Source: a virus
UHGV virus genome: UHGV-0074812
Strand: one strand, 5' to 3'
DNA: 29,386 bases
The position numbers and the translations under genes were made by a program. This document shows positions 1-5,923 of this stretch, one piece after another (the stretch's first letter is position 1; the number at the start of each line of letters is the position of its first letter). The notes beneath the pieces are model-generated. The model was not told the DNA's origin, ran no database searches, and saw only the letters and a program-made list of their open reading frames with translations.

Positions 1-616
1 AAAAAAGAGGCTGACCCGGTATTCTCTCAAATAAAAAACGAGCATTTTTAAATCGACTGACATCTGGAAGAGTTGATACTTTAAAAGTAAGCCCTCGCCC
101 ATCTATCTTTTCACCACCTGTTGCAACAGAAAGTAATTCTGATAGAGCTGATGTATCATCATGAACACCATCACCAATAGCCCCCCAACCTCTTACATCA
201 TAACTGTCTCTCCATCTTGCTATCTGAAGTTTTGGGTATTTATTCGCTCCATCTGTGTCTTCTAATTGCTGCCGTAACTGATCAGGATCATACTTCAGCA
301 CATTAGGAAAATAGAACTGCTGCACACCGTACGCATCATAAACAGCCATAGAATGGCCCTGTACAGTAACGAATTTGGCAATCTGTCCGTTATATACCGG
401 ATATCCAGCAGCGTTAATGATGATTGGTTGAGAAACAGGAACGTGAGAGCCATCTTCGTTCTCTACATAAACCTGAATCTGGTTTTCAGGATTTACAGGG
501 TCAGTGTCAATTTTTCCTATATAAATTTTGCCATTGGCTACGGCTTTAAAAGAACGAGCCATAGTGAAGAGTTGCGAAGGCATCGATACGATCACATTGG
601 CTGTAATGTCTGTCAT
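1..616 (-). CDS. Tailspike protein, N-terminal ~205 aa only (gene continues beyond window start); P22 gp9-type head-binding domain followed by a non-P22 receptor-binding domain
   Basis: Reverse translation from ATG at 616 gives [58 protein letters not shown]..., the conserved head-binding domain of P22/Sf6/HK620 tailspikes; GGAG RBS 9 nt upstream; downstream part ([16 protein letters not shown]) looks like start of a beta-helix enzyme domain different from P22 endorhamnosidase. Confidence 0.8.
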
Positions 617-672
617 TTAATTTGCTCCAGATACAAGGAATCGCCGCAGCATGGCTACGGTGAATTTTGGGC

Positions 673-696
673 ATAAAAAAACCCAGCCGAAGCTGG
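673..696 (-). terminator. Rho-independent terminator between ant and tailspike (hairpin cccagc-cgaa-gctggg followed by U-run on minus-strand transcript)
   Basis: Perfect 6-bp stem at 681-696 with A7 run at 674-680 on plus strand (= U-run 3' of hairpin on minus strand). Confidence 0.6.
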
Positions 697-716
697 GTCG
701 TTGCGTTGGTTATCTG

Positions 717-1607
717 TCAGTAGTTATGTACTGAAGGAGGTAATTCTTTATTCTTAAGTCTCATCCATGCGGAAAGATTCGTTGGTCCGTCTGGCTCATT
801 GATATCAACATCTCGTGAGTGATTGATTAAAACGTCTCTCGCTATATCGATAATACGGGAGAACTCATAACCGCAGTCATGACATCTGCCGGAATAGTTC
901 GATTGAATTTGTTTCAGCGCCGGATACAGTTCGCGGAATAATGCCTGTGAACGGTTGGCATAATCCCATAGCCATACAAGGCTGTTTGCTTCTTTTGCAG
1001 AAAGCTCGTTTGCTTTCTTCTCTTGTTTGCCGATGAACTCGCCTTCAAGCACTACCCTGTGGATGTACTCTACGGCCAGCGGGATTTGTTCAATTGAAAG
1101 TTCATCAATGCTGTCAATACCAAAACGCTGATGAACCATATTGTATGCATCGTCATAGCGAAGTCCTTTCTTTCCTACCAGCATGTTTACTGCATCGCGT
1201 AGCGGTGTGCGTTCAGCTACTGAAGTTTTACCGCCAATAGTCTTCCTCTCTTGTGTGGCAGTAACCATTGCGTCATATGCACGGATAACCTTCAGCGCAA
1301 ATGCTGCGCTAATCCACATGGCGTAGGAGTAAACAAGCTCCTTGCACACGTAGGTTCCACCATATCGACCTTTCTTAGAAATGACGGGATTCTTATTCTG
1401 CATATCCGCAGAATTAAAAATTTCATTAATCAATTCAATAGTTTCATTTCTACGCATGAAGAAAGCTGGCTGATGTTTTTCCTCCTTTCCAGACGCTACA
1501 TGAAGGTCATTAAGCGAGTAACGCCCCTCTGAATCCATATGAATCTTGACGTCAGAAATGATGATGCTATTAGTGCAATTTACAGTTGACTTTGCTAAGC
1601 TTGACAT
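717..1607 (-). CDS. ant: Antirepressor Ant (KilA-N domain plus ANT/KilAC domain), ~296 aa
   Basis: ORF track 717..1673; likely true start ATG at 1607 (MSSLAKS..., GAGG 10 nt upstream). N-terminal [36 protein letters not shown] resembles KilA-N; position downstream of arc and upstream of tailspike matches P22 immI. Confidence 0.75.
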
Positions 1608-1619
1608 ATCAATAATACC

Positions 1620-1690
1620 TCGTAAGTTTTGTTGATACCGAAGCCCTGACTGTTCCCGCAGTTGGGGCTTCACTGTTTTTGTAAGTCACT
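1620..1690 (+). ncRNA. Candidate sar-like antisense RNA opposite the ant translation-initiation region (hypothetical)
   Basis: Plus-strand intrinsic terminator (stem gaagccc / gggcttc, 1637-1668, then ctgttttt) lies antisense to the arc-orf73-ant transcript just upstream of the ant RBS; P22 is known to make a ~68-nt sar RNA in the equivalent place. Promoter not confidently identified (weak TTGACA/TTGACT candidates at 1586-1606). Confidence 0.3.
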
Positions 1691-1891
1691 GTAGCTATAA
1701 AGCCACTGACCACTCATTTTTGATTTGATTGACTCTACTGAGTCACGGCAAGGAATGATTCCGCCTGACATCATTCTGATCTCCGTAAATTCACCACTCC
1801 TTATCGATTCAATGCCATCAATGTTAACTAAAGATTTACCTCTACCAAGTGCATTCTCATAGCCAATCTCATCAACCTCAATAAACCTCAT
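1670..1891 (-). CDS. Hypothetical 73-aa protein inserted between arc and ant
   Basis: [47 protein letters not shown]...; ATG overlaps the arc stop (ATGA at 1888-1891), GAGGGG 9 nt upstream; no family recognised. Confidence 0.5.
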
Positions 1892-2046
1892 ACCGTTATC
1901 CCCTCTCTCTTCAGGCTGTCCAACACTCGCTTGTAAATCTCAGAGTTAACAGATCGCCCGTTCTCTTCAGCTACCTTGCGCACCAAATCCAATACTTCTT
2001 TAGGCCACCGCAAATTGAACTGAGGCATTTTTCTTGCACCTTGCAT
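1888..2046 (-). CDS. arc: Arc repressor (ribbon-helix-helix), 52 aa; not in the ORF track because it is under 60 aa
   Basis: Manual reverse translation: [52 protein letters not shown], near-identical in pattern to P22 Arc (MKGMSKMPQFNLRWPREVLDLVRKVAEENGRSVNSEIYQRV...); GGAG 6 nt upstream of ATG at 2046. Confidence 0.85.
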   Translation of the reverse strand: MQGARKMPQFNLRWPKEVLDLVRKVAEENGRSVNSEIYKRVLDSLKREGITV

Positions 2047-2139
2047 ATTCAACTCCATTTCACTCATTGATAGTACCGTACTACTATTGAAAGCGTACTA
2101 CTACCGTTCTAGCATGTCAACAAATAAAAGGAGAACGAC
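2047..2139. promoter_or_regulatory. Divergent immI control region (Pant/Pmnt with Arc and Mnt operator-like palindromes)
   Basis: Intergenic region between divergent arc (-) and mnt (+); contains palindrome TAGTA-ccg-TACTA and repeated GTACTACTA motifs at about 2070-2106. Confidence 0.5.
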
Positions 2140-2382
2140 GTGGCTAGAAATGATCCACAATTCAACGTAAGAATGCCTGATGAGATAAAACAGCAACTTA
2201 CGCATATTGCTGCAACAAATCGCCGCTCGATAAACGCAGAGATTATTTCAGCTATCGAACTATGGATAAAAATTCATAAAGGGCAGCTAATACCTTCAAG
2301 TAGTCGAATCCTGACAAAGTCTGAGCAAGAGGCGTTTGATGTAGCTATTGATGTGTTAAAACGTGTAAGAGATGGAGGATAA
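2140..2382 (+). CDS. mnt: Mnt-like repressor (Arc/MetJ ribbon-helix-helix family), GTG start
   Basis: MARNDPQFNVRMPDEIKQQL... parallels P22 Mnt N-terminus (MARDDPHFNFRMP...); AAAGGAG RBS upstream of GTG at 2140; divergent from arc as in P22. Confidence 0.8.
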   Translation: MARNDPQFNVRMPDEIKQQLTHIAATNRRSINAEIISAIELWIKIHKGQLIPSSSRILTKSEQEAFDVAIDVLKRVRDGG

Positions 2383-2384
2383 CC

Positions 2385-2618
2385 ATGGAGCAACAACAAG
2401 GGTCGCCATTATCATTGATTATTATGGTGATTTTTTTCGTTTTTATCTTTTTTATACCTGCGTTAAAAATATCCAAAAAGGCCGGTTTTGACTGGAAGAT
2501 GGCTGTATGTTTAACAATCCCTGGCTTTAACGTGGTGGCGTGGCTCGCGCTTGCGTTCATGGATTGGCCAATTCACAAGTATCTACCAAAAGATGTGAAT
2601 CGTAAGGATGCAAAATGA
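2385..2618 (+). CDS. Hypothetical small membrane protein (77 aa, two predicted transmembrane helices)
   Basis: Strong GGAGG RBS 8 nt upstream of ATG; hydrophobic stretches LSLIIMVIFFVFIFFIPAL and VCLTIPGFNVVAWLALAF; immediately downstream of mnt on same strand. Confidence 0.6.
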   Translation: MEQQQGSPLSLIIMVIFFVFIFFIPALKISKKAGFDWKMAVCLTIPGFNVVAWLALAFMDWPIHKYLPKDVNRKDAK

Positions 2619-2824
2619 ATAAAAAACAGCTTATTAAGTCAAAAACGTCAAGCAAGGAAGAATTAGAGAAGGAGCTAAACTCCCTGAAATATGCTCTGTG
2701 TCTGGTTTACTCAAGACTGCCAATGGAAGATAAAAACGCCATTTACAATGAAATGATTAGCAGCCTTGATTTTAACGATAGAGACCTAGCATCCCACCTC
2801 AACAGCTTCCGCGTCCCTGAGTAA
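2615..2824 (+). CDS. Hypothetical 69-aa protein, translationally coupled to upstream membrane protein
   Basis: ATGA start/stop overlap at 2615-2618, AAGGA RBS; no recognisable family. Confidence 0.5.
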   Translation: MNKKQLIKSKTSSKEELEKELNSLKYALCLVYSRLPMEDKNAIYNEMISSLDFNDRDLASHLNSFRVPE

Positions 2825-2984
2825 TTCTGTTGCGGATTTGCTTCTTGCGGTGGTTTAAGCTGGAGAGCTTGGCTTCTGCTTCTGATATTTGCGCATCTAG
2901 ATCTTTAAGCTCAAGATCTGAAAGTCGCTGGTCAAGCAGGGTTTGATTCAACTCAATGTTGTTCAGACGTTCTTCTATGGTCAT
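2799..2984 (-). CDS. Hypothetical 61-aa coiled-coil protein
   Basis: Strong AAGGAG RBS 7 nt upstream of ATG at 2984; heptad-like sequence (LSDLELKDLDAQISEAEAKLSSL); converges on and overlaps the 3' end of the plus-strand ORF by 26 nt, so one of the two may be spurious. Confidence 0.4.
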   Translation of the reverse strand: MTIEERLNNIELNQTLLDQRLSDLELKDLDAQISEAEAKLSSLNHRKKQIRNRITQGRGSC

Positions 2985-2996
2985 GATTACTCCTTA

Positions 2997-3022
2997 TAAA
3001 AAACCCACCTGACGGTGGGTTT
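2997..3022 (-). terminator. Intrinsic terminator hairpin (cccacc-tgac-ggtggg) flanked by A-run and T-run; strongest in the minus direction
   Basis: Perfect stem 3004-3009/3014-3019; on the minus strand the hairpin is followed by UUUUUUUAUAAGGAG, i.e. terminator directly abutting the RBS of the 61-aa ORF. Confidence 0.6.
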
Positions 3023-3319
3023 CATAGTTAGTTTGGGACCGGACTTCTCCATTGAAAAATAAGAGGTTTTTTGAATTTTTCTAGCAAAAATGGATCAACA
3101 AAATCAGCCATATAATTCGTATTTAGAAAACGATCTACATTCCTCACATGCTCACCGATTCCTGCACATCAACGCCAAGTTTTGATGCAGGCGTTGCCAT
3201 TCTGGAAAGTCTCTACAAAACACAATTGTACCGCTCTCAAAGAGCGGAACTAGCATCTTTGGTACTTTTCCAATGTTAACTTTTTTCATGGTATCCTGCG
3301 TAAAACTAAGGAGGTTGGT

Positions 3320-3742
3320 GTGTTTGGTATATTAACGAGAAGCAAGATAAAAAAATTAAGGGCAGAACTCGCCGAAACACAAAAACTGGCTTCACATTTT
3401 TACAAAATGAAATACGACGCTGAAGAGCGTGCATTCGTTGAGTTATGCGATTTATCTATTCGTATGGGAGTAGAGCCAGATGTAGCGGCAAAAACTCAAC
3501 AAGGCATTGATATACTTGCAGATGTTGTTTTAAACAGGCAATATGCGTTTTATCTAAACGAGAAGGCCATTCAGATTTACTCGCAAATCTTCCTCCTGGA
3601 AAAAAGAAGAGGAACTCACGATCGAGAAGAGTGGTTAAATGAAGTTGTTAAAAAATCTGGCTGGGAAGTTGTTTCATCAGAACTACCTCTTATTTGTGCT
3701 GATTTAATCGAAGAGGCAAAAGAGCGCCTATCCGATGGCTAG
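3320..3742 (+). CDS. Hypothetical 140-aa soluble protein in accessory island (GTG start)
   Basis: GGAGG RBS 5 nt upstream of GTG at 3320; preceded by ~300 bp AT-rich non-coding DNA; opposite orientation to flanking late genes; no recognisable family. Confidence 0.65.
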   Translation: MFGILTRSKIKKLRAELAETQKLASHFYKMKYDAEERAFVELCDLSIRMGVEPDVAAKTQQGIDILADVVLNRQYAFYLNEKAIQIYSQIFLLEKRRGTHDREEWLNEVVKKSGWEVVSSELPLICADLIEEAKERLSDG

Positions 3743-3766
3743 ACGAATCCATCCGTGGATTACTAA

Positions 3767-5923
3767 TTACTCCTGTGCCATTCCGCTTAGCGATGCCACA
3801 ATTCCAGCTCTTGCTAAACGCTGGAACTCTTCGTTTCCTAGTGCCTCGCGTATTGCTTTTACGGCGGCCTTATTTGCCATAAATCTGCGTTCCGCCGCCG
3901 CTAATGCACCATCACTTGCCCCAACCTTAACTGCCTTTGTTGCCTCTTGAACAGCCTTTTCAATAGCGTAACGACCACTGCGGGATGCAGCTAACTTTTC
4001 TATCGTCCCTTTAGCTATAGATCCAGAAACAGCCCCTACAACACCGCCAACAATCCCTCCACCAGTAGTACCAACAATAGCCCCTGATGTTGAATTGCCT
4101 ATTGCATTGAGAACTGTCATGACAGCTTTTGGCAGTCCTTGCTCAAGAGAGTTAATTGCCGGTATAGAGCGCCCCGTATGCTCTACATATCGCAGTGGTC
4201 TGGTTGCTGCTCTGGCAAGGTCGCTGTATGCCCTAGCAATCCTACCCATTTCTGGCGAGTGCCTACTAATGGCAGTAATGTTCTGCGGCGTAAGGATCGA
4301 CGCTATATGGAATACGCCAGCAGACTCTGATTTACCGCCACGCACCCCTTGCGATACCGCATCTTGTAATATTGATGCAATTGCAGGAGATCGCTCAGAC
4401 TCTGGCAGCGCGCCAATAATCTGATGAAACTTTCCTGTCCCACTTTTTGATGAATTTTGCAAGGCTTTAATACCATCAGTGACTAACTGATCAGTTGCAA
4501 GGTTTCTAAACGCTGCTTCAGCCTGTTCTTGTGCTGTAAATCTTGCTTTTGACAGATCATTAGCTTTTTGCCAGTCATCAAGAAAACCGCCATTTTGAGC
4601 CATTATGCGCATATCTTCCGTTGCTGCATCACGAAGCTCCGCCATGCGCCTTGCCGTATTTGCCTCACCAGACCTTATATACTTCTGCTCAGCGTCAGAA
4701 AGTTTGCTTCGCCATGCCTTCATGGCATCAAACGTGATTCCTTTTTTACCAGTTTTAGCATAAGCAGATGCAAATTGTTTCATCTCAGGAGTTAGCGGCA
4801 TACCAGCCAAAATATCACCCTGAATTGTAGCGTTCAGGTTTGACATTCTGGCCTTTGCGTCAGGCATCGTGGAGCGGACGCTATCCCATGCTTCCTTTTC
4901 TGAGTTCTTCATTTTATCAATACTTGCTAAAACCCTTTGTTTTATGGCTGCACTTTTTTCTGATGCAGATCCAGCCTCAGCACCAAGTTCATCAAGTGCT
5001 GAGTGGAATTTCGACTGTATTTCACTAAACGCCCTAGTATGTGCATCCTGAACAATTCCTGGTTCGGATGCCAATATCCCTTCGGCTTGTGCAATTCCAC
5101 GACTTCCAGATCGCATTCCTGGTGTTAATGCGTTTATATCAATTCCAGCAGACTCAGCAGCTTTTGCTACATCTTCGGACACATTAGCGGCCTGACTGGC
5201 AATTGACTGACGCCCAGCACCTGACTTTGCCATCCTGGAAACATCATTAGCAGAATTCAGTGCTGCACCACCAAGAGCCTGTGAAACTCTTGGCGCAATA
5301 ACGCGCCCGACACCTGAAAGAACGCCTTGAGCACCAATATTGATACCACCGTTAATGGCAGCATTTTGTGCAAAGTCGCCCTCCTGATTTGCAGCATCAG
5401 CAAGAGAACCGGCAATCATGTTTCCTGCGGAACCGATGTCTCCTGCGAGCTTTGCTGGCGTTCCAGCAGCTTTTGCTGCTGTGCCAATTGGCAGGAGATA
5501 CCCACCAATTGTTTCACCGGCTTGCGCGTAAGGGTCTGTCGGTCGATCGACTGGACGATAGACATCATCCAAAACCTTGGGGCCACCAAGCCCCTGGCTG
5601 ATTGCATTAATCAGACTTGCGCCACCCTGCAATACGTCAAATGGTATGTTTACCAGACCACGACCAGCCTGTTCAGCAATTTGCCCTGCACTTTGACCAC
5701 CTGTGAGCCAATCACCAGCTTGTTGCATCAATGATGGTTCTTCTTTCTGCTGCTGAGGCGGAGGGTATGCTGCATAAAACTGATCTCTTGCTTCAGCCCA
5801 TTTGTCACCAGCCTTAGGGGCAACAACCTCATCAAAATATTGCGCTTGAGCCTGTGCTTTCTGTTCTTCAGTTAACGCCTGATACTGTGGAGAAGCGATA
5901 ACATCTTTCCATGCTTTAGCCAT
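3767..5923 (-). CDS. Ejection/internal virion protein, gp16-like (718 aa)
   Basis: Position last in the gp7-gp20-gp16 ejection-protein block; Ala/Gly/Gln-rich low-complexity sequence typical of these proteins. Confidence 0.7.

Follow-up and report, generated by a model that had tools for sequence, protein, structure and literature searches.

The sar RNA of phage P22 is a 69-nt RNA that blocks the ribosome-binding site of the antirepressor gene ant (PMC7968456, PMC3134472) and is detected by RNA-seq of P22 infection (PMC13397905). It is a cis-antisense RNA of the immI region (Rfam RF00262): its promoter, Psar, lies in the first ant codons, its start adjoins the ant ATG, its first stem-loop carries an anti-Shine-Dalgarno (anti-SD) sequence, and its second is a 14-bp terminator hairpin abutted by the stop codon of the upstream gene. 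P22 sar was reportedly studied by Liao et al. in 1987, by Wu et al. in 1987, and by Schaefer and McClure in 1997. Lambda OOP RNA and P22 sas RNA are likewise short phage antisense RNAs that end at intrinsic terminators and tune lysis-lysogeny regulators, but their targets and mechanisms are different (OOP acts on cII mRNA via RNase III), and they share no common sequence or structural homology with sar. Closer relatives are the sar homologues of the P22-like Escherichia coli phages EC.P3, Kapi1, and PhiR12, which are also unannotated.

The features of P22 sar recur in the DNA analyzed here, a stretch of 29,386 nucleotides (UHGV virus genome UHGV-0074812; hereafter, the window). The plus strand at 1608 to 1680 belongs to the sar family by covariance model, by a two-hairpin structure with covariation, by positional identity with P22, and by its immI context. 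The element is an unannotated, otherwise ordinary member of a well-characterized, Rfam-curated family. We consider it likely that the region encodes a homologue of P22 sar, a cis-antisense RNA of about 70 nt that represses ant and is transcribed from the homologous Psar. P22 sar is experimentally proven; for the window copy, we infer from the sequence that the homologous promoter is active, where exactly the RNA begins and ends, and that ant is repressed.

The regulated gene, ant (717 to 1607, minus strand), encodes an antirepressor with KilA-N and P22_AR_C domains (PF04383, 1.6e-19; PF10548, 6e-27) and is annotated as ant in Salmonella phage vB_SemP_Emek (JQ806763); the KilA-N domain at its N terminus distinguishes it from the Ant of P22. 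Upstream lie orf73 (1670 to 1891, minus strand), a small open reading frame between arc and sar/ant that appears in the ORF list and in the Emek annotation and matches phrog_11805 (function unknown) but no Pfam family, and arc (1888 to 2067, minus strand; annotated start, 2046; Pfam Arc, 2.6e-26; also annotated in Emek), the first gene of the arc-orf73-ant operon. The start of orf73 overlaps the stop of arc in an ATGA (1888 to 1891). These three genes are co-oriented on the minus strand, and an mnt-like gene with an Arc domain by Pfam (2140 to 2382) lies on the plus strand. Just past the ant stop, an intrinsic terminator on the minus strand (680 to 699; GACCCAGCTTCGGCTGGGTT followed by TTTTTAT), which is annotated in Emek, separates ant from a minus-strand tailspike gene downstream. 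The gene upstream of the sar terminator is orf73, an extra gene after arc, whereas in P22 it is arc itself.

The 1-kb segment from 1400 to 2400 is 100% identical to Emek. Over the full length of the window, the best matches are HK620-like E. coli podophages (611R6, HK620, and CUS-3), at about 95%. Identity to Emek is limited to the immI piece, the distal 300 nt (3′ part) of ant being ∼8% different. The window is thus a P22-like (Lederbergvirus) mosaic genome or prophage with an Emek-type immI; that it is phage Emek itself was ruled out, since only the immI segment is identical.

In a scan of the whole window, RF00262 (sar RNA) was the sole Rfam family to exceed its gathering score, matching 1609 to 1674 on the plus strand with 61.7 bits (gathering score, 43; E, 1.2e-10), over model positions 1 to 68 of 68 and with no non-standard pairs flagged. 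Our own covariance model (R1), seeded with P22-type sequences only, found the copy at 1608 to 1680 (55.7 bits; E, 5.6e-10). Together with the fold, these matches define a predicted sar RNA of about 72 nt (1608 to 1680, plus strand) that would start at A1608 or U1609 and end in the U-run at 1676 to 1680, both ends being taken from the P22 and epsilon34 annotation. Its minimum free energy fold consists of two hairpins (−29.1 kcal/mol; z = −6.4), and the centroid fold is the same. The element lies in the immI module, on the strand opposite ant and in the intercistronic gap upstream of that gene. Its predicted 5′ end is 1 to 2 nt from the ant ATG (1607), the offset annotated in both P22 and epsilon34, and in alignment the offsets of the −10 element, start site, ant ATG, and Shine-Dalgarno (SD) sequence are the same as in P22. 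The initial annotation had suggested a sar-like antisense RNA of 60 to 100 nt at 1586 to 1690. A sar-like identity is supported by the RF00262 score, by the identity of the terminator to those of P22 and epsilon34, by the position relative to ATG and SD, and by covariation in stem 1, and the size range fits the ∼72 nt predicted from the homologous start. The proposed interval takes in all of the predicted RNA (about 1608 to 1680); the homologous promoter, beginning at 1573, is covered in part only.

The second stem-loop of the predicted RNA (1640 to 1671, plus strand) is an intrinsic-terminator hairpin by terminator scan, by fold, and by its identity to P22 and epsilon34. Its arms, GAAGCCCTGACTGT and GCAGTTGGGGCTTC, form 14 pairs (seven G-C and three G-U) around the loop TCCC (UCCC in the RNA) and are followed in the DNA by ACTGTTTTTG, with a T-run at 1676 to 1680 (ACTGTTTTT). 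The corresponding U-tract, ACUGUUUUU, is longer than that of P22, where it reads AACUUUA. With its 14 pairs, the hairpin was the strongest and longest terminator-like site found by the terminator scan in positions 1 to 4000, and the plus strand folds with −23.4 kcal/mol (z = −5.6), a value equaled by 0 of 200 shuffles. On the minus strand, the same hairpin reaches −18.4 kcal/mol (z = −3.2), being weaker because three plus-strand G-U pairs turn into A-C, and the terminator scan found no U-run in the sequence that follows it on that strand (GGUAUCAACAAAAC). Because the minus-strand hairpin is weaker and lacks a subsequent U-run, the site is terminator-like on the plus strand only, as the initial annotation had read from the hairpin and T-run. 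A bidirectional terminator or an attenuator of Pant transcription was ruled out, as the minus strand has no U-run past the hairpin.

The hairpin lies in the 62-nt gap that separates the orf73 stop (1670 to 1672) from the ant ATG (1607) and is antisense to the ant leader; viewed along the mRNA, it precedes the ant SD, GAGG (1621 to 1618), on the 5′ side. This agrees with the earlier placement of the terminator antisense to the arc-orf73-ant transcript and upstream of the ant ribosome-binding site, the co-orientation of the three genes having been confirmed. The U-tract of sar derives from the end of orf73, whose final codons read Gln-Lys-Gln-stop, so that the two overlap at the 3′ end of orf73. 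The hairpin is 100% identical to that of epsilon34 and 97% identical to the annotated P22 sar terminator (BK000583), from which it differs at one loop base. In Edwardsiella GF-2 and SPN3UB, which are distant, independent BLAST matches, the only hairpin changes are pair preserving, e.g., U-G to C-G and G-U to A-U.

Could the hairpin act instead in the arc-orf73-ant mRNA, in processing, stability, or ant translation, with its likeness to a plus-strand terminator being incidental? The minus-strand RNA does fold, with the energy and z score given above. On the minus strand, however, A-C mismatches take the place of three G-U pairs in the terminator and of many G-U pairs in helix 1. The U-run is confined to the plus strand, and the same hairpin is annotated as the sar terminator in P22. 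We regard a sense-strand element as extremely improbable.

The 5′ half of the predicted RNA is unlike that of P22: all 32 nt between the complement of the ATG and the hairpin differ, but the stem is kept by compensatory changes. Fold, Rfam alignment, and covariation place stem-loop 1 at 1608 to 1636 (plus strand), with an 8-bp stem, AUCAAUAA/UUGUUGAU (1608 to 1615 paired with 1629 to 1636), and an apical anti-SD, CCUC (1618 to 1621), that is exactly complementary to GAGG, the SD of ant. The stem-loop contains a plus-strand-specific U-G pair. All six stem-1 pairs modeled by Rfam are standard in the window copy, though in five of the six both bases depart from the family consensus. The arms of stem 1 are identical to those of the EC.P3/Kapi1 type, and the loop has diverged. 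EC.P3, Kapi1, and PhiR12 have the stem-1 arms UCAAUA/UGUUGA in common with the window, as well as the stem of hairpin 2 (only loop bases differ in PhiR12) and a related ant N terminus. In contrast, their loop 1 (UUUCCUAAUCCGAUU) and SD are unlike those of the window, and they have a strong −10 element, TGcTATACT.

The design of stem-loop 1 is conserved: a 5′ hairpin beginning at nucleotide 1 was found in 16 of 16 leader types folded singly, including those of Edwardsiella GF-2 and Salmonella SPN3UB. Among 73 relatives, double changes occur at six of six helix 1 pairs, with 95.9% of cells paired, 100% in helix 2, and 98.8% over both helices, counts that are biased upward because the alignment was fitted to the structure by a covariance model. 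None of 500 shuffles reached the observed values, and slid controls were 35 to 44% paired. G-U pairs are frequent in both helices of this alignment and strengthen both hairpins on the plus strand, which points to the plus-strand RNA, rather than the ant mRNA, as the selected structure. RNAalifold applied to a plain MAFFT alignment of 24 variants recovered the invariant terminator alone; this result is uninformative on stem 1 because MAFFT misaligned the diverged 5′ halves, and the run was replaced by per-sequence folding and model-guided alignment.

The target of the predicted RNA would be the ant translation initiation region (1605 to 1621, minus strand), which by sequence comprises the SD (GAGG, 1621 to 1618), a 10-nt spacer, and the ATG (1607 to 1605), the start being as annotated in Emek. 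We propose that the plus strand is transcribed from a promoter buried in the first ant codons (GTGCAA, 17 bp, TGcTAAGCT), that the first nucleotide of sar is 1608 or 1609, immediately beyond the start codon of ant, and that the RNA ends at the hairpin and U-run (1640 to 1680). The 5′ stem-loop would offer its CCUC to the ant SD, and sar would pair with the arc-orf73-ant mRNA and also with any late read-through transcript. Pairing would occlude the ant ribosome-binding site, and synthesis of the antirepressor would be held down. This repression of ant translation by the candidate sar is predicted solely from its perfect complementarity in cis. Geometry, structure, and complementarity are all preserved, and the mechanism is therefore most likely that of P22, operating on a KilA-N-type ant; sar-type repression of such an ant within an arc-orf73-ant operon is the most likely reading of our analysis.

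The promoter, which the initial annotation could not place with confidence, is the weak point of the sar reading. The homologous Psar as a whole (GTGCAA, 17 bp, TGcTAAGCT) spans ant codons 3 to 12. Its −35-like hexamer, GTGCAA (1573 to 1578, plus strand), lies inside ant codons 10 to 12, matches TTGACA at three of six positions, and is assigned by homology only; the aligned hexamers are GTGTTA in the annotated Psar of P22 and GTGTTC in epsilon34, with GTG invariant in our alignment A1. The extended −10 element (1593 to 1601, plus strand) consists of TG (1593 to 1594), c, and TAAGCT (1596 to 1601), is the reverse complement of ant codons 3 to 5 (Ser-Leu-Ala), and has the same offset from the ATG as the TGcTATACT of P22. 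That sequence is the family form and is the reverse complement of Ser-Ile-Ala at the same codons. Across 123 copies, the −10 region reads TGCTATACT about 100 times, TGCTAAGCT 8 times (the type found in the window), and TGCTACACT 7 times. Nearly all 123 copies preserve the bases TG, T-12, A-11, and T-7, and the window retains all of them; T-12, A-11, and T-7 are present in every variant listed, and TG is present in all except one (L062, CGcTACAAT).

Ant N termini that are otherwise unlike all start with M-x-S-I/L-A (MNSIA in P22, MKSIA in EC.P3, and MSSLA in the window). This conserved start is explained by the Psar −10 element being written into ant codons 3 to 5, and these codons appear to be under a dual-coding constraint from the antisense promoter.

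The −10 hexamer of the window, TAAGCT, matches the consensus at three of six positions, compared with five of six for the TATACT of P22, and both of its differences from the family norm lead away from the consensus. On a crude position weight matrix (PWM), based on textbook frequencies for the consensus and giving too much weight to the −35 element, the homologous Psar scores 6.0 in the window, 8.2 in epsilon34, 9.4 in P22, and 11.9 in EC.P3. It is the local best in the latter three, while a score of 6.0 is within the background (∼4 chance occurrences per kb per strand). The homologous Psar is therefore weaker here than in P22. The Psar of P22 is activated by convergent transcription from Pant and is reported to need it.

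A second, non-homologous promoter candidate, TTGACA (1601 to 1606) and TAAGTT (1623 to 1628) with a 16-bp spacer (1601 to 1628, plus strand), sits 27 bp downstream of the homologous Psar and would start transcription near 1635. The perfect TTGACA arises 5 bp downstream, with the change from TATACT to TAAGCT. The ancestral Psar might thus have decayed and the sar promoter have migrated in this leader type, yielding either an RNA of ∼45 nt with little more than the terminator hairpin and no anti-SD, or transcription from both promoters in tandem. The shorter RNA would base pair with ant leader sequence upstream of the SD and be incapable of direct SD masking. It might work through duplex cleavage of the leader or through transcriptional interference (RNA polymerase collision with transcription from Pant), or it might have no effect. 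In favor of a shift, the downstream candidate scores 11.0 on the crude PWM, compared with 6.0 for the homologous promoter, and only eight combinations in the whole 29-kb window, both strands included, score ≥10. Moreover, the perfect TTGACA owes its existence to the very substitutions by which the old −10 element is weakened (AGT ATA to AGC TTA, with codon 2 TCA).

Several lines of evidence nevertheless speak against a shifted promoter. First, the TTGACA/TAAGTT pair is found in this leader type only and has no comparative support. Second, its score comes from textbook frequencies in which the −35 element is over-weighted, and TAAGTT matches the consensus at three of six positions. Third, stem-loop 1 is intact, with a plus-strand-specific U-G pair and, despite the diverged loop, arms identical to those of EC.P3 and Kapi1, which argues that 1608 to 1636 is still transcribed on the plus strand. 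Migration of the promoter is thus unlikely, and the comparative evidence favors the homologous start at 1608/1609 over one at ∼1635.

Natural variants of the leader type found in the window were inspected in three E. coli prophages and in seven copies from IMG/VR or phages. Together they show one substitution in the promoter and stem-1 region, at 1586 in a single copy (L015), which is also the sole substitution within 115 nt of the hairpin. Since it falls outside both promoter candidates, these variants neither reveal selection on the homologous Psar nor discriminate between the two promoters. A further −35 candidate, TTGACT at 1586, was rejected as part of the main promoter: its spacer to AATAAT is 19 bp, it reads CTGACT in the same variant copy, and other leader types lack it.

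Promoter candidates for the surrounding genes were located by consensus scan. The Pant candidate (2092 to 2120, minus strand) combines TTGACA (2120 to 2115) with TACGCT (2097 to 2092) over 17 bp (crude PWM score, 12.0), and the Pmnt candidate (2087 to 2115, plus strand) combines TTGAAA (2087 to 2092) with TAGCAT (2110 to 2115), also over 17 bp (score, 11.8). The two are divergent and overlap between arc and mnt, in the layout of the annotated P22 pair. A 10-bp direct repeat, CGTACTACTA (2077 to 2086 and 2094 to 2103), lies inside the overlapping candidates, and a palindrome, TAGTAC-C-GTACTA, occupies 2071 to 2083 in the same region (2071 to 2120). Repeat and palindrome are probably Arc/Mnt operators with a specificity unlike that of P22.

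From arc to the terminator of sar, the interval resembles a slot for cargo genes. The combination of orf73 and the hairpin is also found in phage 611R6, where it is joined to a P22-type ant. Elsewhere, the same slot is occupied by a 270-nt open reading frame (EC.P3 and APEC strains) or by a gene annotated as “ClpX C4-type zinc finger protein” (E. coli LR-64-1).

The 181-bp stretch from 1540 to 1720 is 100% identical in the chromosomes of two E. coli strains (Z1323CEC0019 and CH468) and 99.4% identical in a third, and a full or partial match to the region occurs in 321 of 5,426 complete E. coli genomes. Scanning IMG/VR with the hairpin as a pattern recovered 119 loci, with ∼40 different sequences upstream of the hairpin that fall into 12 leader types; the invariance of the hairpin among these loci is imposed by the search pattern. 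Among these sequences, the hairpin behaves as a mosaic joint, leader and downstream types occurring in many combinations. The CUS-3 “bsq2 boundary sequence” was considered as prior recognition of this joint and rejected, being a 482-bp feature that is not hairpin specific.

Such mosaicism invites the reading that the hairpin is a silent relic, kept as a joint for recombination between ant and the arc-side module, with no useful level of antisense RNA. The 32-nt hairpin is invariant (by search pattern) between variable flanks, 115 IMG/VR copies combine 12 leader types with 22 downstream types in many ways, at least five different downstream sequences follow the Emek-type leader, and the homologous promoter is weak. 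However, the window retains the family-invariant promoter bases (TG, T-12, A-11, and T-7), its stem-loop 1 and anti-SD are intact, its U-tract exceeds that of P22 in length, and its leader type is unchanged in several independent prophages. We therefore consider a silent relic very unlikely and retain the reading of the region as a sar homologue.

A second, divergent sar-like element was found with our own model in two IMG/VR contigs, at 4268 to 4342 of L032 and 8365 to 8436 of L104, both on the plus strand (31 to 32 bits). It has the same promoter-and-start layout (TGcTACAAT/CAT) and another terminator hairpin, GAGGCCCGG...CCGGGCTTC, followed by a T-run, which suggests a sister lineage of sar RNAs in contigs with two ant modules.

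Annotation of sar is uneven across these genomes. The gene is annotated in epsilon34 and in P22 (BK000583, with promoter, RNA, and terminator), whereas both the GenBank and the RefSeq records of Emek lack it. Four E. coli prophage regions with this or a near-identical sequence were inspected in RefSeq (e.g., NZ_CP148401.1, 2507533 to 2507713), and none has an RNA feature there, and the hit tables for the other E. coli matches listed give protein-coding genes only under the sar sequence.

The main value of the present finding is in annotation, as a sar RNA that passes the Rfam threshold is missing from Emek and from four E. coli prophage regions; the understanding of immI regulation is unchanged by this copy. 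The family is also a clean case, taken from nature, of co-evolution between the 5′ half of an antisense RNA and the sequence it targets, at least 12 ant leaders keeping a 5′ hairpin that presents the anti-SD, while the 3′ terminator hairpin is nearly fixed across mosaic boundaries. The 32-nt hairpin may also double as a recombination joint at which ant alleles and arc-side cargo reassort, leaving the antisense gene unbroken.
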